The notes below the pieces were generated by a model. The model ran no database searches. It was not told the origin of the DNA and worked only from the letters and a program-made list of their open reading frames with translations. Positions 4,347 through 61,137 of a stretch of DNA of 64,000 bases are shown here, piece after piece (the stretch's first letter is position 1; each line of letters begins with the position of its first letter). Both the position numbers and the translations under genes were made by a program. The stretch comes from Bacteriovoracia bacterium (GTDB taxonomy: Bacteria > Bdellovibrionota > UBA1018 > CAIPTA01): NCBI GenBank assembly GCA_050246755.1, contig JBFWVL010000001.1:1198486-1262485 (forward strand), written 5' to 3'.

Positions 4347-4356
4347 CTAGTGTTCC

Positions 4357-5571: not shown

Positions 5572-5577
5572 CTAGGA

Positions 5578-40182: not shown

Positions 40183-40191
40183 GTAGCTCTC

Positions 40192-42132: not shown

Positions 42133-42142
42133 GACGAAATCC

Positions 42143-43439: not shown

Positions 43440-43448
43440 AAATTTTCC

Positions 43449-44552: not shown

Positions 44553-44555
44553 GAC

Positions 44556-45974
44556 TTAACTCACTTTCCGCGACGATTCGATCAACGCGCCGATCAGGCT
44601 CGCGAGGGGCCGGCTCATGCCGATCGGCTGCGTAACGGCCTGGAAGGTTTGCTGCATTCCCTGATAATTCACGAAAGTTCCGGCTTTTTCGTACGTCGAG
44701 AGACCGGGCAATACGAATTGGTAACCGAGAAGCTCTTCCTTCAAAAACAACCCGATCGCCACCGCTTTTTTCGCTTTCTTCGCCAGCCCGTAAGGGGGGC
44801 GCACTTTGCCCGCGCTCACGAAGAAGCAAAGGTCGAATTTCGCCGGATCGAATTCCGCCGAAGCCTTAAATCCCACGGCTTCGAGTCCCTTCAAATTAGG
44901 AGATTTATCTTTACGGCGCAGCAAGTGATCGAGCGGCTTATCTTCTGAGCTCGAATTCACGGTTGGGCTATAGGAAAAATAGGCGGCGTTTGGAAATGCT
45001 TTCTTCAGCGCATGAGCTTCTTCTTGCGTGGCATCAGCGCACACGAAGAAAGCAATCGACTTGGCGCCATCCATCATTTCTTTTACGGCGGGAAGCGCTT
45101 CGTTCCACATCATGCCCTTAGGATTTCCGCCACGGAGATCCGTAGGCCCCAGTACGCGAGAGGGAGTGTGCACGTGGTGAAAGCCGTAACGGCCTTCATC
45201 GCACATCCACCACTTATTCACTTCCATATTCACGCGCGGCTCCAGACGGAAAACCACGCCGGAATCCTGCGAACCAAGAATATTACAGCCCTGCGCACAG
45301 CCGTCGCATACGCTTTCGGCCGTTTTGAGATACCACACGCGCTTTTTGAAGCGGAAATCCTTGGTGGTGAGAGAGCCCACAGGGCAAACATCAGCCAGCC
45401 CGCCGGCATAAGCAGTTTGCAGGGGCTTATCATCGATCGTGATGATCTCAGTGCTGTTTCCGCGCTGCTCGGCGATCATTTCGTGGATACCACCCACTTC
45501 GTCGCAATAGCGGATGCAGCGGGTGCAGTGAATGCAACGATTCATATTCTTCTTGATCGAAGGGCCCATATCCACATCGATAAAGGTACGGCGGAAAAAC
45601 TGGTTCCGGGTGTCTTCGGCGCCGTGGTTATAGCTATACTCCTGAAGGCTGCATTCTCCGGCCTGATCGCAAATCGGGCAATCGAGCGGATGGTTAGCGA
45701 GCAAAAATTCCTGCACGCCACCCACAGATTTTTTTACTTTTTCGGAAGTGGTGGAAATTTTCATTCCATCGGCGCAGGGCGTGGAACAAGCGGTCACCAG
45801 TTTCTTCTGGCCCTCCACTTCCACCAAGCACATTCGGCACTGTGCCACGATCGAAAGACCGTCGTGGTAGCAATAGCGGGGAATATGATTGTTTTTGGCA
45901 CGGTCGGTAGCCTGGATGATCTTCTCACCCGGCTTAAACTCTACCTGCACTCCGTCGACTATAATGTTCGGCAT
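44556..45974 (-). CDS. nuoG: NADH-quinone oxidoreductase subunit G (compact form)
   Basis: 472 aa; N-terminal 2Fe-2S and 4Fe-4S cysteine motifs (CRMCLVEVEG, CPICDQAGEC, CIHCTRCIRYC); shorter than typical NuoG. Confidence 0.85.
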   Translation of the reverse strand: MPNIIVDGVQVEFKPGEKIIQATDRAKNNHIPRYCYHDGLSIVAQCRMCLVEVEGQKKLVTACSTPCADGMKISTTSEKVKKSVGGVQEFLLANHPLDCPICDQAGECSLQEYSYNHGAEDTRNQFFRRTFIDVDMGPSIKKNMNRCIHCTRCIRYCDEVGGIHEMIAEQRGNSTEIITIDDKPLQTAYAGGLADVCPVGSLTTKDFRFKKRVWYLKTAESVCDGCAQGCNILGSQDSGVVFRLEPRVNMEVNKWWMCDEGRYGFHHVHTPSRVLGPTDLRGGNPKGMMWNEALPAVKEMMDGAKSIAFFVCADATQEEAHALKKAFPNAAYFSYSPTVNSSSEDKPLDHLLRRKDKSPNLKGLEAVGFKASAEFDPAKFDLCFFVSAGKVRPPYGLAKKAKKAVAIGLFLKEELLGYQFVLPGLSTYEKAGTFVNYQGMQQTFQAVTQPIGMSRPLASLIGALIESSRKVS

Positions 45975-45988
45975 TTTATTCCTTTAAT

Positions 45989-47278
45989 CTAGTGGCTATA
46001 GCTCGAGCTTCCAAAAGGGCAACGCTTCTCGTTCACGTGTTGCTCGTATTCGGTTCGGAATTTTTTCACCATTGAACGCAACGGCCAGGCAGTGGCTTCG
46101 CCGAATGCACAGATCGTGGTTCCGTCCATGTTATTGCAAATGTCTTCGATCAGATCGAGGTCGCCAATATTCCCCTCGCCCCGCTCGAGGCGCAGGTGAA
46201 GATCTTTGAGCCACATGGAGCCCTCGCGGCAAGGTGTACATTGTCCGCAGCTTTCCACTTGGTAAAAATGCGCGGTGCGGATCGCCACCTTGAGAATACA
46301 AGTAGCGTCGTCTATTACCATAATGCCGGCCGAGCCGAGCATGGAACCAGCCTTCGCCAAAGAATCAAAATCCAGGTTCACACTGCATTCTTCGGCCGTG
46401 AGCACCGGCGAGGAGGATCCGCCGGGAAAAGCCGCCTTCAGCTTCCGGCCCTTCCAAATTCCCCCACAATCTTCGTTGATCAACTGCATGAGAGGGTAAC
46501 CGAGGGGACGCTCGTATAGGCCAGGACGGTTTACGTGTCCAGAAATACAGAACAGCTTCATGCCGTGATTGCGCTCGGGACCGAACTGCTTGAACCAGGC
46601 GGCGCCGCGATTAATGATCATCGGAATGCAGGCTAAGGTTTCCACGTTATTCACTACCGTGGGGCAACCGAACAAACCGATAGCGGCCGGGAAAAAAGGA
46701 GGCTTGATTCGCGGTTCGCCCCGCTTTCCCTCGAGGGAATTCAGGAGCGCGGTTTCTTCTCCGCAAATATACGCGCCGGCCCCGCGATGCACGATCATGT
46801 CGAGCTGGTATCCCGTGCCGTTCACGTTTTTTCCAAGCAAACCGGCCTTATAGGCTTCTTCGATCGCTTTATCGAGGATCTTTGCCTCCTTCACGTATTC
46901 ACCGCGGATATAGCAGTAAATCATATGAGCATTGATCGCCATCGCGGCGATGATGGCACCTTCGATCATGAGATGAGGCTGGTAAGCCATGATCGCGCGA
47001 TCCTTAAAAGTGCCGGGCTCAGATTCGTCGGCGTTGATCACGAGATACTTCGGTTTATCTGAATTCTTCGGAATGAATCCCCATTTCGTGCCGCAAGGAA
47101 ATCCGGCGCCCCCGCGCCCGCGAAGGCCGCTTTCCTTTACCTCGGCCAAAACTTTTTCTGGCCCCATTTCCACGGCCTTCGGAAGAGCCGTATAACCCGA
47201 TTCATTCTTTTTATAGGCGTCGAGGCCTTCCACACCGGCCTGGCCGTAATATTTAGAGAATACGATTTCCTGCTGCAT
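45989..47278 (-). CDS. nuoF: NADH-quinone oxidoreductase subunit F (FMN/NADH-binding)
   Basis: 429 aa; GRGGAGFPCGTKW, GAGAYICGEETALLNSLEG, ESCGQCTPCREG. Confidence 0.92.
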   Translation of the reverse strand: MQQEIVFSKYYGQAGVEGLDAYKKNESGYTALPKAVEMGPEKVLAEVKESGLRGRGGAGFPCGTKWGFIPKNSDKPKYLVINADESEPGTFKDRAIMAYQPHLMIEGAIIAAMAINAHMIYCYIRGEYVKEAKILDKAIEEAYKAGLLGKNVNGTGYQLDMIVHRGAGAYICGEETALLNSLEGKRGEPRIKPPFFPAAIGLFGCPTVVNNVETLACIPMIINRGAAWFKQFGPERNHGMKLFCISGHVNRPGLYERPLGYPLMQLINEDCGGIWKGRKLKAAFPGGSSSPVLTAEECSVNLDFDSLAKAGSMLGSAGIMVIDDATCILKVAIRTAHFYQVESCGQCTPCREGSMWLKDLHLRLERGEGNIGDLDLIEDICNNMDGTTICAFGEATAWPLRSMVKKFRTEYEQHVNEKRCPFGSSSYSH

Positions 47279-47751
47279 TAGCGGAACTCCTCAAGCACTT
47301 TATCGAGCTGTTTCTCATCGAAATTCTCGTGGTAGTCGTCGTTGATCTGGCAAACCGGCGCCGTGCCGCAAGATCCGAGGCACTCCACTTCGGAAATAGT
47401 GAACATTCCATCCTTGGTGGTACCACCCAGAGAAACACCGCACTTCTTTTCCGCGCGGTGAATGAGGTCTTCGGAGCCGCGCAGCCAGCATGCGATGTTA
47501 TTGCAAAACTGGAGGTTATACTTGCCCACCGGCTTGGTGTGGAACATGTGATAAAACGTAACCACTTCTTTCACCCGCGTTTTCGGAATCGCGAGAAAAT
47601 CGGCCACATCTTGCATCGTATCGTCGGAGATCCAGCCGCGGTCTTTTTGGGCCGCATGCAGAGCCGGTAAGAGCATGGCTAGCTTATTGGGATACATTCC
47701 TTGAATGCGGTCCATCTCGGCGTAAAATTCGTTTCCAAATTTCTTTTCCAT
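47278..47751 (-). CDS. nuoE: NADH-quinone oxidoreductase subunit E (2Fe-2S)
   Basis: 157 aa; CNNIACW...CLGSCGTAPV thioredoxin-like 2Fe-2S motif. Confidence 0.9.
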   Translation of the reverse strand: MEKKFGNEFYAEMDRIQGMYPNKLAMLLPALHAAQKDRGWISDDTMQDVADFLAIPKTRVKEVVTFYHMFHTKPVGKYNLQFCNNIACWLRGSEDLIHRAEKKCGVSLGGTTKDGMFTISEVECLGSCGTAPVCQINDDYHENFDEKQLDKVLEEFR

Positions 47752-47752
47752 A

Positions 47753-48994
47753 TTAGCGGTCTAACTCCCCGGCAATAATATTCACGGAACCAATCACGGC
47801 GATCACGTCGCCCACGTTTTCACCCTTCACCATCTCGTCTACGGGCTGGAACATGAAGAAAGAGGGGGCGCGGATACGCAAGCGGTAGGCCTTGGGACCG
47901 CCGCGGCTGATCGCGTAGAAGCCCATTTCGCCATTTGGGCCCTCCATAGGGCAGTACGCTTCTCCTGGAGGAACATCGAAACCTTCCATGAAAAATTTGA
48001 AATGGTGGATCAAGGACTCCATCGAATTATAAACGCGTTCCTTTTCCGGAATCTTCACGCGTTTATCGTCGGCCCAGATTGGGCCTTTGGGCATTTTCTG
48101 CGCGATCTGGCGGAGCATGCGGATGGATTCGAAAATTTCCGCCATACGCACCAGATAGCGATCGTACACGTCGCCGCCCTTTGCCACCGGAACGTCGAAC
48201 TCCAGCTCGCGGTACGCAAGATAAGGGCGGTCCCTGCGTAGGTCGATATTTACGTTGGAAGCGCGGAGGCAAGGGCCCGTCATCGAGTAAGCGAGTGCCT
48301 GTTCGGCGGTGAAAACGCCCACACCGCGGGTACGATCCACCCAGATACGGTTGTTCGTGAGCAGCTTGTCGAGCTCCTTAAAACATCTTTCGGTTTCATC
48401 AAGCCAAGCGTTCAGACGGGGAATGAAGCCATCGGGCAAATCACCAGAAAGACCGCCCACGCGGGTATAGGTGGTGGTCAACCGTGACCCACAGAGACTT
48501 TCGATCAAACTATAAGCTTCTTCGCGCTGGTGGAATCCGATGAGAAAGTAGGTCATGGCGCCAAGGTCGAAGGCATTGATGCCCACGCAAATGATATGAT
48601 CAATGATCCGCGCCATTTCGCAAACCATCGTGCGAATCCACACGTTGCGCGGAGGAATCTCGATGCCCATGAGCTTCTCGATCGTGGTCACGTAGGCCAC
48701 GTTATTCTGCAGGGCCGAACAATAATTCAGGCGGTCCGTATAGGGAATAAACTTATGGTAGGTTTTCACCTCGCCGAGCTTTTCCATCCCGCGATGCAAA
48801 TAACCGATCTCACATTTGCTCTCCTCCACCACTTCGCCGTTGAGCCGGCAAACGATACGAAGCGTTCCGTGGGTCGCCGGATGCTGGGGACCGATATTGA
48901 TAAGCATCTGCGAACTCTCGAAGATATCGCCATTATCGTCGTCTTCGAAGGCATCGCCTTTTCTAGGGAGCTGGAGTCCGGTTAGTTTATCCAT
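47753..48994 (-). CDS. nuoD: NADH-quinone oxidoreductase subunit D
   Basis: 413 aa; NIGPQHPATHGTLRIV, IGYLHRGMEKL, YTDRLNY, C-terminal GSVNIIAGELDR. Confidence 0.92.
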   Translation of the reverse strand: MDKLTGLQLPRKGDAFEDDDNGDIFESSQMLINIGPQHPATHGTLRIVCRLNGEVVEESKCEIGYLHRGMEKLGEVKTYHKFIPYTDRLNYCSALQNNVAYVTTIEKLMGIEIPPRNVWIRTMVCEMARIIDHIICVGINAFDLGAMTYFLIGFHQREEAYSLIESLCGSRLTTTYTRVGGLSGDLPDGFIPRLNAWLDETERCFKELDKLLTNNRIWVDRTRGVGVFTAEQALAYSMTGPCLRASNVNIDLRRDRPYLAYRELEFDVPVAKGGDVYDRYLVRMAEIFESIRMLRQIAQKMPKGPIWADDKRVKIPEKERVYNSMESLIHHFKFFMEGFDVPPGEAYCPMEGPNGEMGFYAISRGGPKAYRLRIRAPSFFMFQPVDEMVKGENVGDVIAVIGSVNIIAGELDR

Positions 48995-49647
48995 TATTCA
49001 CGCTCCAATACGGTCTTGGCCGAGCCTGGAGAGCCGATTGTTTTTTCTTTACGCAGCTCGTGCCGCGACATTCTCTCCGCCGATGGATCAAGACCGAAGC
49101 TATCGGTGGATGCCGATCCCTCGAAGCGCTGGTAGCGCTTAATGGGATAGTCCTTACGCTGGGGATGCCCCACCCAGCGCTCGTCGAGCAGAATGCGGTG
49201 CAGGTGGGGATGGCCCGAAAATCTCACGCCGTACATATCGAACACCTCGCGCTCCAGCCAATTGGCGGCCCTCCAGATGCCCACCACCGAGGGAGTTTCT
49301 TCTTCTTCTCTCACCCGCACCTTAATACGGATGCGGTCGTGGTTCTGCAGGGAAAAAAGCTGGTACACCACCACGAAGCGGTGCGCCCCGCCGGGGTTCT
49401 TCAAAGTGCCGAGGCCGTAGTCCGCGATCTTATCCAGCGGAGGATTATCATCGTAAGCGGTGAGATCAGAAAGGAAGCTGTACTCGAGGCCCTCTTCCGT
49501 GCGGATCGACTGCAAAAATTCTACGATTTTTTCTTTGCGCACGAAAAAAATAGGATCATCGGTATTTTCCGATACTACTTCCTCAATGGCATCGCCGTAA
49601 CGGGCTTTGATCCTGTCGATTTTTTCCTTCGGAAAATCCATCTTCAT
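48994..49647 (-). CDS. nuoC: NADH-quinone oxidoreductase subunit C
   Basis: 217 aa; [24 protein letters not shown] signature. Confidence 0.9.
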
Positions 49648-50126
49648 TGCAGCATCGCCTTACTTTTTTTAATTTTTTCCTGGAGCCGCATCACGCCGTG
49701 AATCACGCCCTCAGGAGAGGGCGGGCAGCCGGGAATATAGATGTCCACCGGAATTACTTCATCCGCACCCTGCATAACACTGTAGGTATCGAAAATGCCG
49801 CCGGAAGAAGAACAAGCGCCCATTGCGATCACCCACTTAGGATCGGCCATTTGCTCATAGAGAGTCTTGAGCACGGGGCCCATCTTCTCCGTGATCGTGC
49901 CGGCGATGATCATCATATCGCTCTGACGAGGAGAAAAGCGCACCACCTCGGCGCCGAAACGCGCAAGATCGTAGTCGGCCGAAAGCGTGGCCATCATCTC
50001 GATTCCGCAGCAGCTCGTACCGAAAGGATAGGGCCAGAGAGAGTTGGCTCTCGCCCAATTTACAAAATCTTCCAGTCTAGTAGTTAAAACATCCGGTGCG
50101 CCGTCTTTTGGCATATCGCCCCCCAT
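49644..50126 (-). CDS. nuoB: NADH-quinone oxidoreductase subunit B (N2 cluster)
   Basis: 160 aa; [23 protein letters not shown] cysteine motifs. Confidence 0.92.
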
Positions 50127-50151
50127 TCAGGCCGCTTCTGCGGCCCAGAAA

Positions 50152-50514
50152 CTATTCCCACTCGAGCCCGCCGCGGCGCCATTCGTATAAAAAGGCCACG
50201 GTAATCATGGTCATGAAAAATAGCATTACGCCGAGGATGAAAAAGTTCACCCCGAGAAATTTCCGGTACGCGAGGGCCCACGGAAAGAGCAGGGCTACCT
50301 CCACATCGAATAATAGAAAAGAAAGTGCCACGAGATAGAAGCGAACCGAAAAACGCTTTCTCGCGTCTCCACTAGGAGGTACGCCGCATTCGTATACGGA
50401 ATTTTTGAATTTATTAGGTCGCTTTGGTCCCAAGAGAGCCGCGCCGAAAATTACGGCGAACGAGATGCCTAACCCCACGAGAAACAAAAGCAAAACCGGA
50501 AAATACCCGGACAT
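50152..50514 (-). CDS. nuoA: NADH-quinone oxidoreductase subunit A
   Basis: 120 aa; YECG motif and FDVEVALLFPW; AGGGGG-type RBS upstream of the ATG. Confidence 0.88.
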   Translation of the reverse strand: MSGYFPVLLLFLVGLGISFAVIFGAALLGPKRPNKFKNSVYECGVPPSGDARKRFSVRFYLVALSFLLFDVEVALLFPWALAYRKFLGVNFFILGVMLFFMTMITVAFLYEWRRGGLEWE

Positions 50515-50556: not shown

Positions 50557-52011
50557 TTATTTAAGAAAGACTTTTGCAGTTTCGAAAAGTAAGGCAAATA
50601 CCCGATGCCAAAGGAATCCAAGCGCGGCGAGAGCAACGATTGCGACGGCTAACGAGAGCCACTCCAACGCGCCGTACCGAAACAGAACAAGAGGCGCAGT
50701 GTTTGTCGACGACGAAGCGCGTTGGCGGAATAGTAAATCCGTTCCCACGCGAATGGAAATTAGCGAAAGGGTGGCCACCAGCAGTACTTCGGCCGCGAGG
50801 AAAAATAGGGATTTCTGTTCCATCATCGCCGCCAAAAGATTCAATGCCATGGGAAATCCAGGTAAACCAGGAATGCAAAGCGGGCTGGCGAGCGCCAATA
50901 ATAGCAATAACCCCGAAGAGCGAAACGTGCGCGCGGCACCGTAGACATCTTTTAAATTTTCGCCGCCGGCACTTTCTTGAAATCGTCCCCAGTTAAAACC
51001 CAAAAGACTGGTCCAAACAAAAACCGAGGCAAAAGCATAGGTAATGGAGGATGCACTAAGTACGGTCGGCAATGCACCGGCCACTAAAATGGCCGACCAC
51101 TGCGCGCCCACTAGGGCACTGAAAAGACGCTTTGAATTTTCCTGCGTGAGCGCCACTAGGGCCAGCCAAAAGCCACCGCTAAGCCCACAGAGCTGTAACG
51201 TGCGCAGTCCCTCGGAAACTTCCCCGGGCCGAGCCTTGCCAAAAACCTCCACTCCCATTTTCCACAAAGCGAGGGTAACCGTTCCCTGCCAGATCACGGA
51301 AAGGGTTACCACTACCGGCCAGGGCATTCCTTGGTCGCGATCCACGTGCGCAAAGTGAAATGGAAAGAGTCCGGCGGCCATCACGAAGGGCAGGCAAAGC
51401 GCAAACACCACGAGAAGCGCGCTGAGGGAATAAATCGATTGCGCGTGAAGAAAAGAAGAGATCACATCATAGTGAACGCCGCCGGCGACCACGGCCAGAG
51501 CCGTAGCCGCGCCAAACCCACCCGCCATTACCAGAGAAGCTTGAATCCAGTACTTCAAGACGGCTTCCCCTTCACCGCGACCCCGAAACGCCAGGCCGCC
51601 GAGGAAAAGAGATAACCACGATCCGCAAACCAGAAGGATAATCGAAAGGGTCATCTGTCGGGAAAGCAGCAAGAGATCACAAAGCATTACCAGCGTGGAA
51701 AGCAGGAAAAGAACTTCGTGTTTTCTTTTTGCGGGTAACTCTTTGGTGGCCACAACGCCGCGCCCCAGGAGAAGGGCCGCCACGAAAAGAGCCGCACGCG
51801 GCAAACGGAAAAGCGGTTGATCTTCCAGAAGCCCGAACCAGATTTGGGACTGATCGGCCGATTGGCCCACGGCCAAGGTTGCCATTGCCGCCAAAAATCC
51901 GAGGCTTGAAAGAAATTCAATCGCCGTGCGCGAGCGAGAACTGCGGTTAAAAAGCAGCGCCACTCCTTGCGCTAGCGTGGCTAATCCGACGACTAAAATC
52001 GATAAGGGCAT
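50557..52011 (-). CDS. Divergent complex I antiporter-like membrane subunit (NuoN-like)
   Basis: 484 aa polytopic protein; EAVLKYWIQASLVMAGGFGA and GLFPFHFAHVDRDQGMP align by eye with nuoN EASVKYFVMGGASAAIYLYG and AAPFHMWAPDVYEGAP, but charged residues differ. Confidence 0.65.
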   Translation of the reverse strand: MPLSILVVGLATLAQGVALLFNRSSRSRTAIEFLSSLGFLAAMATLAVGQSADQSQIWFGLLEDQPLFRLPRAALFVAALLLGRGVVATKELPAKRKHEVLFLLSTLVMLCDLLLLSRQMTLSIILLVCGSWLSLFLGGLAFRGRGEGEAVLKYWIQASLVMAGGFGAATALAVVAGGVHYDVISSFLHAQSIYSLSALLVVFALCLPFVMAAGLFPFHFAHVDRDQGMPWPVVVTLSVIWQGTVTLALWKMGVEVFGKARPGEVSEGLRTLQLCGLSGGFWLALVALTQENSKRLFSALVGAQWSAILVAGALPTVLSASSITYAFASVFVWTSLLGFNWGRFQESAGGENLKDVYGAARTFRSSGLLLLLALASPLCIPGLPGFPMALNLLAAMMEQKSLFFLAAEVLLVATLSLISIRVGTDLLFRQRASSSTNTAPLVLFRYGALEWLSLAVAIVALAALGFLWHRVFALLFETAKVFLK

Positions 52012-52023
52012 GCCGACCTCAAA

Positions 52024-53478
52024 CTAATTGCCATTTAATCCTTTCAGCAGGGCCGCCACCGATACTCCCATGGGCCCCAGAAGCAGGCTCGGCAAAACCC
52101 CTAAAACCAAAAGCACCAGACCAAGCGGTGCAATCGCAAGAATCTCTTCCCAAACCAAGTCGTGAAACTCTCCGCGATCTCCATCACCGGCCCCGGCGTC
52201 GAGACGAAAAAACATAATGCTCATCCCAGCAAAAGCAACCACCGGAACTGCTAGCGTAACCACGAGCAGCGGCCAGCTATGCACCCCGCTCAGCGACCAA
52301 ATAACGAAAAGTACCCCGTAGAATCCAATGGAAACCGGCAGAAAGAGCGCAAAAAGGGAGGCCGCCGCCGTGCTGAGCGCAAAGGCAGGAAATTCACGGA
52401 TTCTTTGGAGCGGTAAGGGGAATTTTCTTCTCTCGTGACAAGCAAGCACGAAGAGCATGAACGGAATAGAGAGCGTTTGGAAAAATAGGAGAATAAGAGA
52501 GCCGTGCCACCCTTTGGGATTTAAATTGAACAAGCCGATGGCGATGAACGAGCAAACGGTCTGCTGCAACCAAAATACGCGATCGCGCGCCTGGCGTGCG
52601 CCGAGAAAATTCAGCGCACAGTAAAGGGCGCCGATGGAGAAAAAGGCCAGAAGGTAATGGCCGAACCGCAAAAGCTCGCCGGGAAAAAGCTCCACCACGA
52701 AACGAGAGAGCAAAGTAAATCCCAGAAGCGGCTGCAGCGCTAGCGGCACCGCTTTTTCTACGGATTCCATTTCGAATATCCGGCGGGTGCTGCCGTGAAA
52801 GGGAAATATTCCGGCGCCGATCCCGAATGCCAGCAGCAATAATCCAAAGCCGATCGACCCCGGCAGTACCATATAGGTATCGCCCGATAGTCGGAACCAC
52901 TCCCCGATGGAACCACGGAATCCCTCCGAGAACGCCAGCACGCAAAGCAATAACGACAATGAAGCGATGGTAGAGAGAAAAGCCGCCTCGCGTACCGGCT
53001 CAATGCGATTTTCCTTTGCGTCTACCCCGGAAAATATAAATCGGGGGAGTAATGCGCCGGCAAAGAAAACAGAGAAAAGCAAAAGGTGATCAGCGCCTAG
53101 GGCACCGAGCACACAAGTCAAGTAGGCGGAAAGGCTGGCTACCGAGGCGCGGGATTTCTCGAGCATTCCCCTCGCCAGAAAGTGATAGCAAACGGTTACG
53201 GAAGAGACCGCTAGCGCCAATATTCCCGAATGAAATACCCAGCGGAGGCCCGTGTGATTCGACCAAGCGCTCTGGGCGAGAATCGCCGGAGAAAGCACGC
53301 TTCCGGCGTATTCGTTGGGCGAATAGAAGCCGATGGCCAAAAACAGAAAACAAACCCAAGAGAGAAGGTGCACCAACAACGAAAATGCCCAGAGCTTCTT
53401 CCCGCGCACGGGACCGCAAGCCGCCACCGTGACGAGCAGAGGCAAAAACGTAGCGATTAGTCCCGCCCAGCCTTTCAC
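52024..53478 (-). CDS. Divergent complex I antiporter-like membrane subunit (NuoM-like)
   Basis: ORF 52024..53520; start possibly GTG 53478 overlapping the upstream stop (GTGA). GIGAGIFPFHGSTRRIF aligns with nuoM AIKVPLFPLHTWLPDAH; polytopic. Confidence 0.6.
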   Translation of the reverse strand: MKGWAGLIATFLPLLVTVAACGPVRGKKLWAFSLLVHLLSWVCFLFLAIGFYSPNEYAGSVLSPAILAQSAWSNHTGLRWVFHSGILALAVSSVTVCYHFLARGMLEKSRASVASLSAYLTCVLGALGADHLLLFSVFFAGALLPRFIFSGVDAKENRIEPVREAAFLSTIASLSLLLCVLAFSEGFRGSIGEWFRLSGDTYMVLPGSIGFGLLLLAFGIGAGIFPFHGSTRRIFEMESVEKAVPLALQPLLGFTLLSRFVVELFPGELLRFGHYLLAFFSIGALYCALNFLGARQARDRVFWLQQTVCSFIAIGLFNLNPKGWHGSLILLFFQTLSIPFMLFVLACHERRKFPLPLQRIREFPAFALSTAAASLFALFLPVSIGFYGVLFVIWSLSGVHSWPLLVVTLAVPVVAFAGMSIMFFRLDAGAGDGDRGEFHDLVWEEILAIAPLGLVLLVLGVLPSLLLGPMGVSVAALLKGLNGN

Positions 53479-54818
53479 AGGATCCCCCCGGCCAGCTGCG
53501 TGGCCACGACAATGAAACACATCAGGAAAACTCCATACCCAGCGAAAGCGGCCGGGGCCGACTCGAGAGAGGATTCCGCTCCCGGCTCAGGAGGACGATC
53601 ATCCACAAAAATTCTTCGGCAGATATGCACGTTGGCGCAGAAGTAAAAAAACCAAAGCAAGCCGAATACGATGCCGTAGCTGATACCGAGATCGAGGGAA
53701 CGAGCGCCGATCCCACTGAAAATCTGAAACACCGGGGTGCCGGGCACTCCGAGGATAAGCGCGAAAAGAATTCCCACGAAAACCTTCTGTAGCGGGCGCA
53801 CCACTTTGACCACCGAAGCATAAAGTACTAGCCCGGTGAATACTGGTACGAAGAGACAGGTAAAGTACGCGGATAGTACTAAGCTTGTCTTCGAGACTCC
53901 CACCGAAACCAAAATGAGCGAAAAGAAAAAACTCGGTAGGCTTCCCAGCATTTTTCGCCTGGATCCGGCCGCAAAAAGACCGCTGATAGAAAAGGCGCAG
54001 CCGGAGATTCCCAGTAGATACAAAGCCAGCTTCTGCTTCCACCCCATATCGGGATAAACCACAGAAAAAAGCGTGGATATCTTCAAGGCCACCGCGCTGA
54101 TGAAGGTAACCAAGGTAACGGTTACGCCTTCCGGAAGATTTTCCACCGCCATACTGAACCATCGGGACCATGGCGGAAGCGGAATCGAGAGCACTACAAG
54201 GCCCAGCCAGATAAATAAACCGAGCGAAGAACCGGAGCGGGGGCCGAATAGCATATCCTTCGCGCCGAATTCCACCACGCCCCATACAATCATCAGCAGT
54301 CCCAACAAGAAGTAGAGGCTATACATACGGCGGGAAATTCTATCTCCCATCTCACGACTGGCCCCGGCAATGGCAAAGCGAATTAGGTAGAAGAACACCG
54401 CCGCCGCCAGCAAAAGCAAACCCCCAGTAGCTACCGCGTTGTTAGAAATTATAAAAAGGCTGGTAAACGCCTGCGCCAGCGATAGCAGCACGCTTACCAC
54501 TCGCAGGCCGCCCGCCACCGCCCCCATCGCATGGGCAAAAAGAAAGCAGAGTTCTGCGGTGAGCAAAAAACCAAGCCGGAAAGAATCAAGCGAGAGCACG
54601 AATTCGAGCGGATAACCATCAGCAAGCGAGGTAGAAATTTCAATTACCGCTCCGCCAAATACAACCGGGCGTAAAAGCACGATGAGAAGTAGAGCGCGAA
54701 GGCTCGACGCGATGATCCCCGGGGAAACGAGCCTTTTGTGAAATGCATTCGGCAAAGGTATCGCGGCGGCGAAGGGCAAAACTATATACAGTAAGAATAT
54801 TAGCCGTTCTAAGCTCAT
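53475..54818 (-). CDS. Divergent complex I antiporter-like membrane subunit (additional NuoM/N-like paralog)
   Basis: 447 aa polytopic protein; IPLPPWSRWFSMAVENLPEG loosely aligns with the antiporter-like PLFPLHTWLPDAHVQAP region; 4-nt overlap with upstream gene. Confidence 0.55.
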   Translation of the reverse strand: MSLERLIFLLYIVLPFAAAIPLPNAFHKRLVSPGIIASSLRALLLIVLLRPVVFGGAVIEISTSLADGYPLEFVLSLDSFRLGFLLTAELCFLFAHAMGAVAGGLRVVSVLLSLAQAFTSLFIISNNAVATGGLLLLAAAVFFYLIRFAIAGASREMGDRISRRMYSLYFLLGLLMIVWGVVEFGAKDMLFGPRSGSSLGLFIWLGLVVLSIPLPPWSRWFSMAVENLPEGVTVTLVTFISAVALKISTLFSVVYPDMGWKQKLALYLLGISGCAFSISGLFAAGSRRKMLGSLPSFFFSLILVSVGVSKTSLVLSAYFTCLFVPVFTGLVLYASVVKVVRPLQKVFVGILFALILGVPGTPVFQIFSGIGARSLDLGISYGIVFGLLWFFYFCANVHICRRIFVDDRPPEPGAESSLESAPAAFAGYGVFLMCFIVVATQLAGGIL

Positions 54819-56563
54819 TTAGCCCCCAGGAGAAAGAGCACTCCGGCGAAAAGCGTGAGCACGGTTCCAAAAAACAAATAAAAGCGAATATTTCCGGAAT
54901 GAAGAAAACGCATCAGCCGAGAAAGCGAGGATCCGTAAGCGAGAAAACCACCCGGAAATTTCTCGGCAAAGAGCATCCGATCCGTCTCTTGCAGGGCACT
55001 GGCAGCGCGAATATTTATGGTTCCAGCTCTAAGCGCAATCCAGTCCATTCCTTTTTCGGGCGCAAGCACGGCCGCCTGATTCCAGCGGACAACCGCAGGA
55101 TCGATTCGCGGAAAAAGATCTTCCATTTTCTTTTCCTTATTGGCGCTCCAAATACTAAGGCGAGAATTAGCTCCAAGGAGCATACCCGCCAACCCTCCCA
55201 CCAGCAGGGCGGCCCCGCGCACTACAAGGGAAATATCGGATAAGAAATCTATCGGGAACTGAAGCAGCCCGGACAACCCATCGTAGGCCCGGAATAGAGC
55301 GGCCAGTTGAATCAGGATAACCAGTGACGCGGGCAAAACCGCGGAAGCGAAAGTAAAATTATTTTCCTTCTCTTTGTTCTGCCGCAGAGAACCCACCAAT
55401 GCCTTCACGGCCACCAGAGAAAGCAGAAAAGTGAGTATTCCCATGATGGCTATTTTCAAGATCGTTTCCCGATTCTCGGTATGCGCCGAAGGTACGCTCG
55501 TAAAAGGAACCACGCCGGAGATGATTCCCAGCAAAAACAGTGTGGCTAAGAATATGAGCGCCGTTCGCCACGCTTGGGCACTTTGGCGGGCGAAGCGGAG
55601 CAAAAGGCTTAGGGCGTAACAAGAAAGCAGGCCCATCGCTTCGAAGGCTCCCCAGCTTAATTCTTCCGGCTTTAAAGACGAGAAGCGCAGAAAGAGGATG
55701 TATCCAAAAATGCCGAATAACATCCAAAAGCTGGCGCTAAGCGTGGTGGAGGCGAGAAAAGACAAAGCCGAAAACAGTGCCGTGGCAACTGCAAATAGCG
55801 CCGAAAGCGGGATCCATAATTCGCCCGACATGTCCTCGTGGATAACTCTACCCAGCAGAAAAAAGGCCGTACCCGCCTGAATCAACGCGAGCGGAACATA
55901 GCGCCACTCGCTGAAATTATGCTTAGAAAGCATGAATGCCATCACGTAAAGCACCATGCCGAGCAGAACGACGGAGCTATTGGTAAAGAAGCTCGCCGCG
56001 GTGAGGCCGAGCATCGCGATCAATCCGAGAAATAAAAAACTATTTCGCTTAAAATAGGAAATTCTCTCGAGCTCGCCCTCTGTGCCGCCCATTTCTAGGC
56101 TGAAAGAATGCAAGAGGAAAACGGTGATTTCGATGAACATCAGCGAAAGGAGCGCGTTCTCGCTCAAGTAGGCGAGGGCCAGGAATAAGAACGAACCGCT
56201 TAGGAATAGAAAGCGCAGCGTACCCCTCGCGCCGCCGAAGGAAGAAGCGCCGTCGAACATGACCAAACCAAGCAAAACGGAGGCAGAAAGAAAAATCCAA
56301 ACGTACCGCACCCAATACATGAGTAACGACGGCTCAAAATAGCCGGAAGTGTCGGTGGAAAGGGGCAATAGAAATTCCATTTTCACCGGAAGCTCAAACT
56401 GAAAAATCCCGATTAGGGAGGCGAGCAGCATCGTGCCGAACAAAATAAGACCGCCACGCTTCTCGGAATCGGAACGGCGATCGCTCTTAAGCGCAAACAA
56501 AACCAGCGCCGCAAGCGGGGCGCAGAATATAAGCAGTGGCACTACGATATTCCCAAAATTCAT
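54815..56563 (-). CDS. Divergent complex I antiporter-like membrane subunit (NuoL-like by position and length)
   Basis: 582 aa polytopic protein immediately after the NuoK-like gene, with extended C-terminal region; canonical NuoL motifs not recognizable by eye. Confidence 0.55.
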   Translation of the reverse strand: MNFGNIVVPLLIFCAPLAALVLFALKSDRRSDSEKRGGLILFGTMLLASLIGIFQFELPVKMEFLLPLSTDTSGYFEPSLLMYWVRYVWIFLSASVLLGLVMFDGASSFGGARGTLRFLFLSGSFLFLALAYLSENALLSLMFIEITVFLLHSFSLEMGGTEGELERISYFKRNSFLFLGLIAMLGLTAASFFTNSSVVLLGMVLYVMAFMLSKHNFSEWRYVPLALIQAGTAFFLLGRVIHEDMSGELWIPLSALFAVATALFSALSFLASTTLSASFWMLFGIFGYILFLRFSSLKPEELSWGAFEAMGLLSCYALSLLLRFARQSAQAWRTALIFLATLFLLGIISGVVPFTSVPSAHTENRETILKIAIMGILTFLLSLVAVKALVGSLRQNKEKENNFTFASAVLPASLVILIQLAALFRAYDGLSGLLQFPIDFLSDISLVVRGAALLVGGLAGMLLGANSRLSIWSANKEKKMEDLFPRIDPAVVRWNQAAVLAPEKGMDWIALRAGTINIRAASALQETDRMLFAEKFPGGFLAYGSSLSRLMRFLHSGNIRFYLFFGTVLTLFAGVLFLLGAK

Positions 56564-56578
56564 CCGTTAAAACTCCAG

Positions 56579-56899
56579 CTAATGCCGCAAACTATCTTCT
56601 TCATCCACATCCAGCGTTCCGCGAAATCGGCTACAGCGGTGCAATACCAGCAGACCCACCGCCACGAGCGCGGGAACCATTCCCAATGCCACTAACGAGA
56701 GCACGATGAGATCTCCGCCGCCGGAAGAAAAATATTGCGAGAATAAAAATCCACATGCCACCACGGCCTTAAGTGCGGTGGCCTGACCCACCAGCCCCCA
56801 TGCCGCCACCCGGCGCAGCGCGATGGCCGAAAGGCCCGCCACAAATACGGCCAAGAGCAAGATCACGTTAATTTTGTTTGCCACCGAGGTTAAATCCAT
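56579..56899 (-). CDS. Divergent NuoK-like small membrane subunit
   Basis: Track ORF 56579..57289 overlaps the NuoJ-like gene in another frame; start taken at ATG 56899 (MDLTSVANKINVILLLAVFVAG...), giving 106 aa with three hydrophobic helices at the NuoK position. Confidence 0.55.
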   Translation of the reverse strand: MDLTSVANKINVILLLAVFVAGLSAIALRRVAAWGLVGQATALKAVVACGFLFSQYFSSGGGDLIVLSLVALGMVPALVAVGLLVLHRCSRFRGTLDVDEEDSLRH

Positions 56900-57393
56900 T
56901 ACCGCTCCCTCCGCACAAGGAAGAATCCTCCGGTAACGATTACGATCAGGAAAAGCAGCGGAATCACCGCTAGCAGCCAGTCGGAGGTCCAGATTTTTTC
57001 GTGGAGCAGAGACAAACTTGGCGCCGGCGTCACCCCCGGTGGCATCAACTCCTCGAGCTCCAAGATCGCCAGCGCGCCGGTGACCACCGAGCAAAGGCCT
57101 AGCCATAGGAAAAACAGGCGATACAGCCAATCGGCACGGCGATTGCGGGCCGGGCGCGCGGGAAGCAGTTCTTGGGTGCGAAAATAAAGATAAATAGCGA
57201 AATCGGCCGAAAGAAATACCGCAATCATCATAATCCCAAAGTATCCGCCACTCATGAGTTCTACGGCCGCGCCCAAGCCAATGGAGCAAAGAATAGATCC
57301 CCAGAGTAAACGTTCGGTGGAATCGGCGGTGATCGCCATAATCGCGGAAATCAATGCCAACGCCAAACAGCTGCCAACAAAAAATGAGATCAT
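56899..57393 (-). CDS. Divergent NuoJ-like membrane subunit
   Basis: 164 aa, hydrophobic helices, in the J position between the NuoI-like and NuoK-like genes. Confidence 0.55.
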   Translation of the reverse strand: MISFFVGSCLALALISAIMAITADSTERLLWGSILCSIGLGAAVELMSGGYFGIMMIAVFLSADFAIYLYFRTQELLPARPARNRRADWLYRLFFLWLGLCSVVTGALAILELEELMPPGVTPAPSLSLLHEKIWTSDWLLAVIPLLFLIVIVTGGFFLVRRER

Positions 57394-57863
57394 CGTCTCA
57401 CCTCGTAAGTACGAATACGGGTGATGTCTTTATCGCTCTTCTGGCCGCCACCACGAAATACGGCGATTAAATCTTTCGTGCTCTCGGTAACGATTTCAAA
57501 TTCTTTGGAATAGGAAAGGCTAGCCTCGGGACAGATCTCGATACAAACACCGCACGAAAAGCATTTTCCCAAATGAATATTGAATTCTTGCACGCGAATC
57601 GTACCGTCGCGCAGGTTCTCGGAAGTAAAATCAATTGCCTTCACCGGACAGGCCGGAACGCAAAGACCGCATCCACTGCACTTCGATAAATCATTGGTCA
57701 CGTAGCCCTTATAGCTAGTGAACATGTCTAATGGGGCCTTGGCGGACACTAGGTCTGGATACTTTTCCACGACGCTTTTGTAACGATGCTTCGTACGGCG
57801 CAGAAAGCCGAAATTGATTTTCAGCGTGCTCTTGAGGGCGTTAATTACCTGCCTGACCTTCAT
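57390..57863 (-). CDS. Divergent NuoI-like 2x[4Fe-4S] ferredoxin subunit
   Basis: ORF 57390..57911; start probably Met17 at 57863 (ATGA overlap with upstream stop); two CxxCxxCxxxCP motifs (CSGCGLCVPACP, CFSCGVCIEICP). Confidence 0.75.
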   Translation of the reverse strand: MKVRQVINALKSTLKINFGFLRRTKHRYKSVVEKYPDLVSAKAPLDMFTSYKGYVTNDLSKCSGCGLCVPACPVKAIDFTSENLRDGTIRVQEFNIHLGKCFSCGVCIEICPEASLSYSKEFEIVTESTKDLIAVFRGGGQKSDKDITRIRTYEVRR

Positions 57864-58795
57864 CCGCGCACCCCCACCCAAACGGCTTCGAGAAAGAATC
57901 CGATGAGACATAGACGCAATAGCCAGCGGGCCGCCAATTCACTGGCGTCGGCCGAGCGAATCTTAGGAAAACTAGCCTGCAGAAGGGTGAACACGAATAT
58001 TCCGGCCGCCACTTTCAGCGGAAAGAGAACTTTCACGATGAGCCCGCTGGCCCCTCCGCAAAAAACGTATACCCAGAAACAAATCAAAGAGAATACCCAC
58101 ATTTTCTGCACGAAAATCGTGATGTATTGCATCGAGTGATTGAGGCTCTGCTCATCTTGCAGCTGCACTGGACTTTCCGTGGCGAAAAGGAAAATGGAGC
58201 AGAAGGCGGTTATGCCGCAAAGGAAAAGACCCGGACTGCTCAGCAGCGCGTGATAGGGGAAATAAATCTGAAAATCCGAAATCGCGCTCAAGTTGAGCTG
58301 ACCCACCCTTAGGGTTACGGCGAAAACCGATAGCAGCAATCCCGAAACTCCCATCGCCCGAAGCAAAAGCCGGCGGCGGCGGTCGAAACGCTCGCGTGAA
58401 TCGGCGGTGGCATGCACCAGCAGCGCCTCTAAAGCGGCCGCGATCATCGGAAAAAGCAGCAGGAGTGGAAGATCAATTTGATCGCCGCCCTCCGGGTAAG
58501 TTACCGCCAGCAAAGCCAGCAGGAATACTATGGGAAGAATTCGCCAAACCAAGGAGGCGAGACGTATCCGAAACGGCAGGGCCAATAAATCCGCCGGCTT
58601 CTTTTTCCGGGTTTTCTGAAAATCTTTCCAGACCTGAAAAAAATCCGTTTGCCCATGCCGGCCGGGCCCGTCGCGATGCTGCACGCGAGCAGCGACGAAG
58701 CGTTCGCAAAAAAGAAGGAAGAAGGTTCCCCCAAAGAGAAAGAGTAGCGAGCCCACGAGCGCCGCCCCGGCGAGCAAGAAATCTAGCGCACTCAT
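57860..58795 (-). CDS. Divergent NuoH-like membrane subunit
   Basis: 311 aa; RVQHRDGPGRHGQTDFFQVWKDFQK aligns with NuoH RxGPNxVGxxGLLQxxADxxK; polytopic. Confidence 0.7.
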   Translation of the reverse strand: MSALDFLLAGAALVGSLLFLFGGTFFLLFCERFVAARVQHRDGPGRHGQTDFFQVWKDFQKTRKKKPADLLALPFRIRLASLVWRILPIVFLLALLAVTYPEGGDQIDLPLLLLFPMIAAALEALLVHATADSRERFDRRRRLLLRAMGVSGLLLSVFAVTLRVGQLNLSAISDFQIYFPYHALLSSPGLFLCGITAFCSIFLFATESPVQLQDEQSLNHSMQYITIFVQKMWVFSLICFWVYVFCGGASGLIVKVLFPLKVAAGIFVFTLLQASFPKIRSADASELAARWLLRLCLIGFFLEAVWVGVRG

Positions 58796-59868
58796 TTGTC
58801 TACCTCCGAAAAGGAGATATCGAGCGAATGAATCACGAGGAAAGCGTCTTCCGCGTGAATTCCGCGCAGCAGGCGCGGCAGCACCTGAACCGCCATAGCC
58901 GAAGGGCAGAAAAAACTTACTTGCGACGGCTGCGAACGGCCATCGGATTCAACCATCGCGTAGATAGCTCCGCGAGGGCCCTCCACGCCACAAACTGCTT
59001 TTCCGGGCGCCGGGCGCACGTCTAGACCCACCCGGATGCGGTGGTTACCCGAAGGAATATGGCGAAATACGGATTCGATGAGCTGAGCCGACTGCAAAAT
59101 TTCCCGCTTGCGAATGTGTGCGCGGTCGAACGCGTCTCCCAGATAATTCCTCGAGGTGTCTAGCATCATCTCTGTGCCACGATAAGCGCCGTAGGGGCGC
59201 GAAACCCGAAGATCGCAGTCCGCTAAGCCGCTCGCACGCGCGTTAGGACCAGTAATATTCCAATTTTTAACCATCGCCGCATCTAACTGGCCCAAACCCC
59301 GGGTGCGCTTTTCGAAAAACGGGTGCGTAAGGAGGGAGCTTTCTAGATCCGGCAAAAATTCTCTTAAGCTGGCCACGGCTTTTTCGATTTTAAAAAACCA
59401 TCCGTCGGTGGCGTCGCTGATCACTCCACCAAGGCAAATAGAGCCGAAACCAAGGCGCGAACCGCAATACATCTCAAATATATCCGCGAAGCGCTCGCGT
59501 TCCCGGAGGCAGTGATTCATGATCGCAGCCTGCCCGGCAGCCCTGGCCAAATTTCCGTAGTAATGAAGATGGCTGGCAATTCGGTTGAGCTCGAGCAGAA
59601 TTAGGCGAATCTGCTCAGACCGAGCCGAGATTTCTATGCGCAGCAAGTCTTCGCAGGCCGAGGCAAGAGCGAAATTGAAGGCCGGAGCCGCGAGATAATC
59701 GAGGCGATCCATGTAATTTAGGGCTTGGGCTAAAGGTAGCTGCAATGCGATCGCTTCCAGGCTACGGCGTCCATAACCCACGGTCATCCGGGCGTCGGCC
59801 ACTAAGCCACCGTCTTCTTCGAGCTTCAGCCCGAAAGCACCGATTCCCTGCGTTCCCGCAAGATACAT
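58792..59868 (-). CDS. Divergent NuoD-like (49-kDa-type) subunit; no NiFe-binding cysteine motifs
   Basis: ORF 58792..59967; start probably Met34 at 59868. LAGTQGIGAFGLKLEEDGGLV / VGYGRRSLEAI / YMDRLDY / HSLDISFSEVDK align with canonical nuoD GPQHPATHGTLRIV / IGYLHRGMEKL / YTDRLNY / GSVNIIAGELDR. No CxxC pairs at either terminus. Confidence 0.75.
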   Translation of the reverse strand: MYLAGTQGIGAFGLKLEEDGGLVADARMTVGYGRRSLEAIALQLPLAQALNYMDRLDYLAAPAFNFALASACEDLLRIEISARSEQIRLILLELNRIASHLHYYGNLARAAGQAAIMNHCLRERERFADIFEMYCGSRLGFGSICLGGVISDATDGWFFKIEKAVASLREFLPDLESSLLTHPFFEKRTRGLGQLDAAMVKNWNITGPNARASGLADCDLRVSRPYGAYRGTEMMLDTSRNYLGDAFDRAHIRKREILQSAQLIESVFRHIPSGNHRIRVGLDVRPAPGKAVCGVEGPRGAIYAMVESDGRSQPSQVSFFCPSAMAVQVLPRLLRGIHAEDAFLVIHSLDISFSEVDK

Positions 59869-59879
59869 AGGAGTATAAT

Positions 59880-60272
59880 CTAAAGTGGTCGCCACGTGGC
59901 GTCCCTTTCTGGAATCATGCCGGCGAACTCTACTCCGTTGAAAGTGCGTAGCTCTTCTTCCCACCAAAGACTAAACGGCCAGAGGGCGCTGGGGCGCGGA
60001 AAGGCCGAAGAAGGAGCAACTTCCAGAATAAAAAAGATCGGTTCATTTCCGCACGTAAGCAGCAGCTCGATGGAAAGATTCGTGCCCGCGCCGGCCGTCG
60101 ATAACCCATGCAAAGCGGGGCGTTCGCCAGAGGGTAGCGCGCCCCAATGCTCGAGCAATTTTGCCAGCTCCGAAGTTCCCGCCTGGACGCGAGAAACTTT
60201 ATCTCCGGCCGCAGGGGTGCCCGGCACCTTCACGATGCCTCCCCAAATATTTTTTTCTCCGCCTGATCTCAC
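59880..60272 (-). CDS. Divergent, shortened NuoC-like (30-kDa-type) subunit
   Basis: 130 aa; LWPFSLWWEEELRTFNGVEFAG aligns with canonical [22 protein letters not shown]. Confidence 0.6.
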   Translation of the reverse strand: MRSGGEKNIWGGIVKVPGTPAAGDKVSRVQAGTSELAKLLEHWGALPSGERPALHGLSTAGAGTNLSIELLLTCGNEPIFFILEVAPSSAFPRPSALWPFSLWWEEELRTFNGVEFAGMIPERDATWRPL

Positions 60273-60718
60273 GACGCGGACCTCCGGATTTTTTCCTGCA
60301 ATTTAATCAGCGCATGAATCAATGACTCCGGTCGTGGAGGACAGCCCGGAATAAAAAGATCCACGGGAATTATGGCCTCGAGACCCGGGATACGATGTTT
60401 TCCTTCGGCCGAAAACATTCCACCGGTGCTGGCGCAACTGCCAACGGCCACCACGAATTTTGGATCGCGCATCTCGGCGTAAATCTTTTTCAGTTCTTCG
60501 GCAATGCCGGGAGTTACCGGGCCTGAAACAAAGAGCACATCGGCGTTACGATGATCGGTCACAATCCGGCAACCGAGCCTCTCCCAATCGAATCTCGGTC
60601 CGGAAGCAGCTTCCACTTCCAGGGTACAGCAAGAAAGCCCCACATGATAAACCCATAACGAATCCGCGAGCGCGGATTTTGGCTGAGAGGGAGCGGATTC
60701 TTTTTGGATCTCCATCAT
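60269..60718 (-). CDS. Divergent NuoB-like (PSST-type) subunit with N2-cluster cysteines retained
   Basis: 149 aa; SCCTLEVEA, GSCASTGG, PGCPP: all four N2 cysteine ligands in canonical spacing. Confidence 0.8.
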   Translation of the reverse strand: MMEIQKESAPSQPKSALADSLWVYHVGLSCCTLEVEAASGPRFDWERLGCRIVTDHRNADVLFVSGPVTPGIAEELKKIYAEMRDPKFVVAVGSCASTGGMFSAEGKHRIPGLEAIIPVDLFIPGCPPRPESLIHALIKLQEKIRRSAS

Positions 60719-61137
60719 TGGTTTTCCTTATCGGGCCACTCGAGATTGTCTATCCACTTCAGGTAGCTTTTACGGCCGCCGTACCAAAGTAGGGCCAGCA
60801 TCAACGCGGGAAAAATCAAAACCTTTCCCATCACCAGCCAGCGGTCGTGCATTTCGAGGGAAACTATTTTTTGCCGGTACGAAGCCCACATCGGCAAAGA
60901 GAGTGCGATTCCGCACCAGAGCATTAGCAGCCAAAGAACGTGATAGAATGAACGGAACGCACCTTCCGGGGCGCCGTTCCCTGGCTCACGAATTCCCTGA
61001 ACCTTTTCGAGACGATCCCATAGCACGAGCACCAAAATGGCCACAAAAAGCAGCACTGCTGGAATTAAAAAGAGGAGAAATCTAGAATACATCTGCCGTC
61101 CTTGAGTTTCAGTGCCTCTTCCCACAGCCATATTCAC
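60715..61137 (-). CDS. Divergent NuoA-like small membrane subunit
   Basis: 140 aa (start ambiguous: GTG 61137, ATG 61131 or ATG 61092); three hydrophobic helices; C-terminal YLKWIDNLEW resembles NuoA YEWRRGGLEW. Confidence 0.5.
   Translation of the reverse strand: MNMAVGRGTETQGRQMYSRFLLFLIPAVLLFVAILVLVLWDRLEKVQGIREPGNGAPEGAFRSFYHVLWLLMLWCGIALSLPMWASYRQKIVSLEMHDRWLVMGKVLIFPALMLALLWYGGRKSYLKWIDNLEWPDKENQ

Follow-up and report, generated by a model that had tools for sequence, protein, structure and literature searches.

The 64,000-nucleotide (nt) window analysed here, from contig JBFWVL010000001.1 of a Bacteriovoracia bacterium, carries a divergent module of twelve closely packed genes on the minus strand (61092 to 50557). 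They form one tightly packed string at the head of the canonical nuo operon, and the stop codon of one gene mostly overlaps the start codon of the next. The four large membrane proteins of this module, here called P1–P4, belong, as its antiporter-like subunits, to a second complex I-like assembly without an NADH module, which consists of 11 core subunits and one extra. As judged from the sequences, the features that define the fold are conserved and the residues that define the chemistry are not. We consider the assembly to be a structurally intact paralogue of complex I that is unable to pump by the canonical mechanism; most likely it is non-pumping and made together with the canonical complex I. 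The probability that we attach to this reading is roughly 0.7. The four proteins are encoded as follows.

54815..56563, minus strand: P1, NuoL-type antiporter-like subunit of 582 amino acids (aa), with a long lateral helix and a C-terminal anchor transmembrane (TM) helix.
53475..54818, minus strand: P2, extra antiporter-like subunit of 447 aa with an MrpD/NuoM-like fold.
52024..53478, minus strand: P3, NuoM-type antiporter-like subunit of 484 aa when started at GTG; the longest open reading frame (ORF) is 498 aa.
50557..52011, minus strand: P4, NuoN-type antiporter-like subunit of 484 aa, the final gene ahead of canonical nuoA.

The module reads A'B'C'D'H'I'J'K' and then P1–P4, which make up its distal part. 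Neighbouring genes overlap by 1–4 nt or are spaced by 11–15 nt. Translational coupling of P1–P4 had been proposed in an earlier note on this DNA, and the ATGA overlap of P1 with P2 and the GTGA overlap of P2 with P3 can both be read directly, the GTG start of P3 overlapping the stop codon of P2. The ORF lengths and motifs quoted in that note are likewise present in the sequence.

A Pfam scan of P1–P4 returned nothing at E ≤ 1, PF00361 included. The gathering score of PF00361 is reached by a few orthologues and by more distant relatives, and by none of the four window proteins. NCBIfam gave no match for P1 and P2 and only sub-threshold matches for P3 (NuoM) and P4 (NuoN), and the family profiles of P1, P2 and P4 had no match at E ≤ 10 among the PDB sequences. 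Both P1 and P2 are carried as hypothetical proteins in NCBI and JGI records. The hhalign comparison of P3 with the canonical NuoM of the window extends along the entire protein (probability 96%, E 2e-9), and P3 matches TIGR01972 with E 4e-22 and 78 bits, the cutoff being 264. Comparison with single canonical sequences was significant for P3 only, and P4 became decisive only with a NuoN profile made of 81 PF00361 proteins with complete canonical residues, drawn from an exhaustive HMMER search. Against this profile the P4 family reaches an hhalign probability of 99.8% (E 7e-30, 466 columns). In the exhaustive HMMER search the P4 family profile itself matched 206 proteins at E ≤ 1e-3. Family members score best among these, and weaker full-length matches (E 1e-14 to 1e-4) are genuine PF00361 proteins.

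For P1 and P2 hhalign stayed non-significant (probability 0.3–3.5%), and their identity rests on structure prediction. The AlphaFold2 model of P2, calculated with 33 homologues, has a predicted local distance difference test score (pLDDT) of 88 and a predicted template-modelling score (pTM) of 0.91. It contains 14 TM helices, a β-hairpin after TM2 and breaks in TM7 and TM12. Foldseek places it with MrpD, NdhD and NuoL/M/N with probability 1.0 and a TM-score of ∼0.8 at 11–17% identity. The homology of P1 to antiporter-like subunits was likewise set by structure prediction and fold search. The superfamily fold, with 14 TM helices in two inverted repeats and discontinuous TM7 and TM12, was recovered, and the Pro/Gly motifs at the helix breaks (FPFH, PGxPGFP and VPGTP) are invariant. 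Further invariant motifs are specific to single families: EGEAxLKxW, FPFHFxxxDRDQGxPW and QENSKRLFS in P4, and PLPPWSRW in P2. Four antiporter-like subunits, where canonical complex I has three, had been proposed earlier; this count is borne out by structure prediction and fold search for P1 and P2 and by profile–profile comparison for P3 and P4, so that the genes encode, in order, an L-type (P1), an extra M/D-like (P2), an M-type (P3) and an N-type (P4) subunit. The linker between TM15 and TM16 of P1 is ∼94 aa long, whereas that of the resident canonical NuoL has 78 aa; a longer linker would be expected if an additional subunit had to be spanned, and the pLDDT in this region is below 65.

The key residues of the E. 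coli subunits are E144 and K229 in NuoL, E144 and K234 in NuoM, and E133 and K217 in NuoN, together with NuoN K247 in TM8 and K395 in TM12 (PMC13073174). The canonical NuoL/M/N proteins of the window retain every key residue. Among 103 diverse NuoN-type proteins the TM7 lysine is found in 84, and the canonical Glu, Lys and Lys are each found in 84–87. In the motif around TM7 the window reads LPFVMAAGLFPFHF in P4 and FGIGAGIFPFHGS in P3, where canonical nuoN has FKIAAAPFHMW and canonical nuoM has AIKVPLFPLHTW. For P3 and P4 the residue assignments are high-confidence profile alignments. The composition of the aligned columns in the four families is as follows.

P4 (24 sequences): TM5, V in 15, I in 5, A in 3 and L in 1; TM7, A in 18, V in 4, T in 1 and G in 1; TM8, Q in all 24; TM12, V, I, A, L, S or T.
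P4 in the window: TM5 Glu replaced by V128, TM7 Lys by A212, TM8 Lys by Q242 and TM12 Lys by A389.
P3 (14 sequences): TM5, A in 11, V in 1, F in 1 and S in 1; TM7, S in 6, G in 3 and N, A, V and R in 1 each; TM8, L, I, V or G; TM12, V, A, L or I; TM11 His column, Q, E, G or V.
P3 in the window: TM5 Glu replaced by A140, TM7 Lys by G221, TM8 Lys by L251, TM11 His by Q334 and TM12 Glu by V389.
P2 (33 sequences): TM5, L, I, M, F, A or V; TM7, A in 22, S in 9 and T in 2; TM8, K246 retained (K in 32, R in 1); TM12, F in 31 and L in 2.
P1 (21 sequences): TM5, E145 in all; TM7 break basic, K in 15 and R in 6; TM8, Q in 18 and H in 3; TM12 without a conserved Lys.

No lysine occupies the TM7 column in any of the 24 P4, 14 P3 or 33 P2 sequences, the nearest case being an Arg in one distant P3 orthologue, and TM7a of P2–P4 contains no ionisable residue at all. 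The pair of TM5 Glu and TM7 Lys is absent from the P2, P3 and P4 families and present only in P1 (E145, K/R214), the TM8 Lys survives only in P2 (K246) and the TM12 Lys/Glu is gone in P2–P4. Distant Oligoflexia orthologues have the same pattern of losses. The earlier suggestion that the TM7 lysine had been replaced holds for P2–P4, with Ala, Val, Thr or Gly in P4, but the loss is uneven among the four, since in P1 the break is basic and the TM5 Glu is invariant; the absence of the conserved Lys/Glu residues at TM5, TM7 and TM12 is likewise borne out by alignment for P2–P4. P4 does retain E149, K153, H219, D224, K294 and R295. At the equivalents of E. coli NuoN K247 and K395 it has Gln and Ala. 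In proteoliposomes the E. coli NuoN K247A variant keeps ∼10% of the NADH oxidase activity and 8% of the proton pumping, and K395A keeps ∼17% and 6%, respectively (PMC13073174).

The proximal part of the module (56579..61092, minus strand) supplies the remaining core subunits. Five of them match Pfam and NCBIfam models, in each case under the NCBIfam equivalog cutoff, and three are assigned by position and a weak hhalign match.

60715–61092, minus strand: A', by position and weak hhalign match.
60269–60718, minus strand: B', NuoB, by Pfam and NCBIfam.
59880–60272, minus strand: C', by position and weak hhalign match.
58792–59868, minus strand: D', NuoD, by Pfam and NCBIfam.
57860–58795, minus strand: H', NuoH, by Pfam and NCBIfam.
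57390–57863, minus strand: I', NuoI with two 4Fe–4S motifs, by Pfam and NCBIfam.
56899–57393, minus strand: J', by position and weak hhalign match.
56579–56899, minus strand: K', NuoK, by Pfam and NCBIfam.

The starts of A' (GTG at 61137 or ATG at 61092) and D' (TTG at 59967 or ATG at 59868) are ambiguous; the gene calls of L012, the closest full-length orthologous locus, and the lengths of several orthologues favour the shorter forms of 125 and 358 aa, respectively.

The losses extend into these subunits. At the two Glu columns of NuoK, K' carries Ala/Val/Thr and Pro, and at the Asp and Glu columns of NuoA, A' carries Trp and Gly; we take these NuoK and NuoA residues to be the carboxylates of the E-channel. 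NuoK Glu72 is mentioned in PMC13073174. In H' the RSTAQMISYE segment is missing and the PFDLPEGEAE loop is shortened. D', for which the best models are NuoD and FpoD, lacks a 22-residue helix and has GTQGIGAFG in place of the quinone-site loop GPQHPxxHG. The His of this loop and the Tyr of DRxDY are presumably the ligands of the quinone head group. The His is absent in all orthologues, with no His conserved across the family, and the Tyr is present in the window and replaced by Phe in four of ten orthologues. We also considered D' as the large subunit of an [NiFe] hydrogenase and rejected this assignment on its cysteines: there are no Ni–Fe cysteines at the columns aligned to the N- and C-terminal CxxC motifs, and the C-terminus reads SLDISFSEVDK. 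Cluster N2 is affected in two loci. B' has lost three of its four N2 cysteines in L003 (L003:1281-1709; CC to FS and PGCPP to PGNPP) and all four in L009 (L009:1336-1722), and both loci keep all twelve module genes intact, with P4 identity between them down to 49%. No homologue of NuoE, NuoF or NuoG is found in the module, and the sole NuoEFG genes are those of the canonical operon downstream. A search for an electron-input or partner gene adjoining the module likewise found none, the neighbours being mfd upstream and nuoA downstream.

The genes behave as functional genes across Bdellovibrionota. The arrangement of mfd, the 12-gene module and nuoA–N holds in metagenome-assembled genomes (MAGs) of Bacteriovoracia, Bdellovibrionales and Oligoflexia, taken from GTDB and metagenome contigs, and mfd stands upstream of the module in L012, L014 and L015, the loci whose contig extends that far. 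Start/stop codon overlaps are conserved, and the frames are intact and of unchanging length in at least ten independent assemblies at ∼20–97% identity. The earlier note had also raised the possibility that one of the four ORFs is a frameshifted fragment of a neighbour; since the lengths of P1–P4 are constant in 7–14 orthologous loci, including independent assemblies, none of them is such a fragment and we rejected this explanation. Between loci the module proteins share 40–65% identity, compared with 80–97% for the orthologues of the canonical operon. The ratio of nonsynonymous to synonymous substitution rates (dN/dS, ω) is 0.03–0.2 for all 12 genes relative to L012, where dS is saturated; for P4 and a 97%-identical relative, where it is not, dN is 0.0137, dS is 0.245 and ω is 0.056. 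These values exclude a pseudogene reading and, together with the intact lengths, point to genes that are functional yet fast-evolving and under purifying selection.

By analogy with complex I, P4 would lie beside A'/J'/K'/H', followed by P3, P2 and, at the distal end, P1, whose lateral helix and terminal TM helix would act as a clamp on the arm. TM7 and TM12 would be retained in this arm as discontinuous helices. The chain of central protonatable residues, on the other hand, appears to be interrupted almost everywhere: at the TM5 Glu, the TM7 Lys, the TM8 Lys/His, the TM12 Lys/Glu, the NuoK/NuoA carboxylates and the quinone-site His. Redox-driven proton pumping by the canonical complex I mechanism would therefore not be expected. 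Candidate roles are those of a scaffold, partner or regulator of the co-encoded complex I, or a redox role independent of the chemistry of cluster N2 and quinone. That N2 is dispensable in one subclade and that both quinone ligands are unconserved weighs against a conserved quinone reductase function, while the invariant NuoI clusters and the presence of N2 in most members leave room for a redox role.

Several observations weigh against a non-pumping paralogue. The eight cysteines of NuoI' (two CxxCxxCxxxCP motifs) are invariant and the four N2 cysteines of B' (CC...C...C) are kept in eight of ten orthologues, that of the window included, so that electron transfer may still be relevant. Intramembrane charges are left in P1 (E145, K/R214 and K387), P2 (E89, K246 and R41) and P4 (K251), an Asp remains in TM3 of J' and a Lys in TM2 of K', and together such charges could build an unrecognised pathway. 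Gln and other polar residues stand at several former Lys/His positions, where they might support a water wire. The residue assignments in P1 and P2 are less certain than those in P3 and P4, as they come from weak alignments (probability 0.3–3.5%) anchored on motifs and predicted helices. Finally, the P1 linker exceeds the canonical one by only ∼16 aa, short of the 26 aa reported for 2M enzymes.

The strongest alternative is that the module encodes an energy-converting oxidoreductase in which a soluble donor, for instance ferredoxin, or a shared NuoEFG would feed I'/B', an unusual acceptor would bind at the remodelled D'/H' pocket and ions would follow a non-canonical polar path. The retained iron–sulfur ligands fit this proposal, as do purifying selection on every subunit and the invariant intramembrane charges that are new to these families (P2 E89/K246, P1 E145/K387 and P4 K251). 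The architecture is that of the 11-subunit complex I, which is active without a dedicated N-module (PMC3144371). The proposal has to accommodate, however, the disappearance of the N2 ligands from L003 and L009, where the other genes have not decayed, a quinone site with no His in any orthologue and an unconserved Tyr, K' and A' with no acidic residue at the NuoK Glu and NuoA Asp/Glu positions, and the deletion in H' of part of the acidic segments of NuoH. Moreover, all canonical positions of P3 and P4 are without ionisable residues, and single Ala changes at P4-equivalent positions nearly abolish the activity of E. coli complex I (PMC13073174). We regard an oxidoreductase of this kind as fairly unlikely.

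We favour the non-pumping paralogue. Its most far-reaching form is a pseudoenzyme at the level of the whole complex: a twelve-subunit assembly, structurally faithful and catalytically inert, without relay or quinone chemistry and with N2 dispensable, which would be co-expressed with complex I and serve structure, assembly or regulation in the respiratory membrane. This extension is put forward tentatively.

A further alternative is that the large subunits have been repurposed for a non-redox membrane task, for example transport or hydration of another substrate as in DAB or CupA/NDH-1MS, with the complex I core as an anchor only. Conservation of the fold and of the broken helices without the proton-relay residues would suit such a change, and so would the family-specific invariant motifs of P4 and P2. 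No carbonic anhydrase-like or Cup-like gene is present in or next to the module, however, its neighbours being mfd and nuoA, and a relative with the same core (L015) has only one antiporter-like gene; we therefore hold repurposing to be very unlikely. A functionless, decaying leftover of a nuo duplication, or else an artefact of assembly or annotation with frameshifted ORFs, would explain why the module diverges much more rapidly than the canonical operon and has lost nearly all catalytic signatures, but is contradicted by the low dN/dS of all 12 genes, the constant intact frames and the conserved start/stop overlaps, and can be dismissed.

Variant loci bear on how the non-pumping paralogue could have arisen. 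In L015 (L015:5360-11461, a freshwater metagenome) the same mfd and A'–K' core is followed by a single antiporter-like gene, of P4 type, before canonical nuoA. Two more distant relatives (L016:2-1986 and L017:86-1558) have a more canonical, PF00361-positive NuoN-like gene immediately upstream of nuoA; ahead of this gene, L016 also has a NuoM-like gene that retains its TM12 Glu. The L016 and L017 genes could be less degenerate forms of the module. Taken together, the three variants suggest, but do not prove, that the relay was lost in stages from an ancestor of the 11-subunit type.

The surroundings of the module in the window are as follows.

37113..50514, minus strand: canonical nuoABCDEFGHIJKLMN, used as context and internal control.
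61252–64000, plus strand: mfd, encoding the transcription-repair coupling factor, upstream of the module and divergently transcribed from 61252.

The gap between P4 and canonical nuoA is 42 nt long, and a terminator scan found no terminator-like site in it. The promoter scan returned no promoter-like site and terminator-like sites occurred at chance level, so that these scans are uninformative. The intergenic region that mfd shares with the module is only ∼115–160 nt long. Within the canonical operon, NuoG (44556–45974, minus strand) has only 472 aa, much less than is usual for NuoG, and its length is 470–473 aa in every related locus. In an Oligoflexia MAG (L014:12299-14092) the canonical nuoC and nuoD, separate in the window, are fused into one gene of 597 aa. 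At the other end of the window, positions 1–6000 have a GC content of 0.47–0.48, compared with 0.51–0.56 in the remainder, and encode among others a hybrid PAS histidine kinase/response regulator.

The debate on coupling in complex I centres on the chain of Lys, Glu and His residues in NuoH/A/J/K and the three antiporter-like subunits. In this module, evolution appears to have taken this chain out of an otherwise intact arm with four antiporter-like subunits, and the arm has long been under purifying selection. If the complex assembles, it would provide a natural negative control for the fold without its charges, with scaffolding, lipid or quinone handling and conformational transmission as possible roles. 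If ions were still moved, a pathway independent of the canonical residues would be revealed. The module also illustrates that large conserved complex I paralogues evade current family models.

Literature searches on Ehr complexes, on nuo in Bdellovibrionota and on antiporter-like subunits that lack the lysines turned up no account of the module; the genome paper on Peredibacter speaks of two nuo clusters in Bdellovibrionota without referring to it. The closest known architecture is the 11-subunit, two-module complex I or NDH-1, which works without a dedicated N-module (Moparthi & Hägerhäll, 2011; PMC3144371). Both comprise homologues of A, B, C, D, H, I, J, K, L, M and N in the same gene order and lack NuoE/F/G. 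The module differs in having one more antiporter-like subunit, in that every subunit falls under the NCBIfam equivalog cutoff, in the absence of the proton-relay residues, the NuoK/NuoA carboxylates and the quinone-site His, and in that it is invariably joined to a canonical 14-gene nuo operon, at the 5' end of the latter.

Compared with canonical NuoL/M/N and with MrpA/MrpD, P1–P4 share the 14-TM fold, the discontinuous TM7 and TM12 and the β-hairpin after TM2. The NuoL-type subunit also has the lateral helix and TM16, and P4 keeps motifs of NuoN outside the relay, namely ExxxK of TM6 and KR before TM10. What separates them is the lack of any PF00361 match at E ≤ 1 and the near-complete loss of the charges in TM5, TM7, TM8 and TM12. 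In Ehr complexes a relative of complex I and group 4 hydrogenases likewise combines a NuoD-like subunit without Ni–Fe ligands with antiporter-like subunits, and their physiological reaction is unknown (PMC6349859). Ehr complexes are presumed to be charge-translocating (PMC6349859), and the likeness is judged here from the absence of Ni–Fe ligands. Unlike them, the module has the full membrane set of complex I, including A', J' and K', and D' scores best against NuoD and FpoD and not against hydrogenase large subunits.

Four or five antiporter-like subunits are found in the 2M complex I of Nitrospira, the green complex I of rhizobia and Complex_I_3 of Manganitrophaceae (PMC9040806). The 2M enzymes have an extra NuoM and a 26-aa insertion in the lateral helix of NuoL, and they and related enzymes have been interpreted as having a higher pumping capacity (PMC9040806). 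The module shares with these enzymes the order L, extra M-like, M and N and, apparently, a longer lateral-helix region in the L-type subunit. It differs from them in that the pumping residues are lost. The lengthening is also smaller, ∼16 aa, in a part of the model predicted with low confidence. The earlier note had called an extra subunit combined with the loss of key charges unusual. A fourth antiporter-like subunit has these precedents (PMC9040806), but the loss of charge goes further than the TM7 position then pointed out, extending to TM5, TM8 and TM12, to the small membrane subunits and the quinone site and, among some relatives, also to N2. The module is a member of the complex I superfamily and not a new category; what is unusual is the near-total removal of the charge relay from a conserved arm of four antiporter-like subunits.

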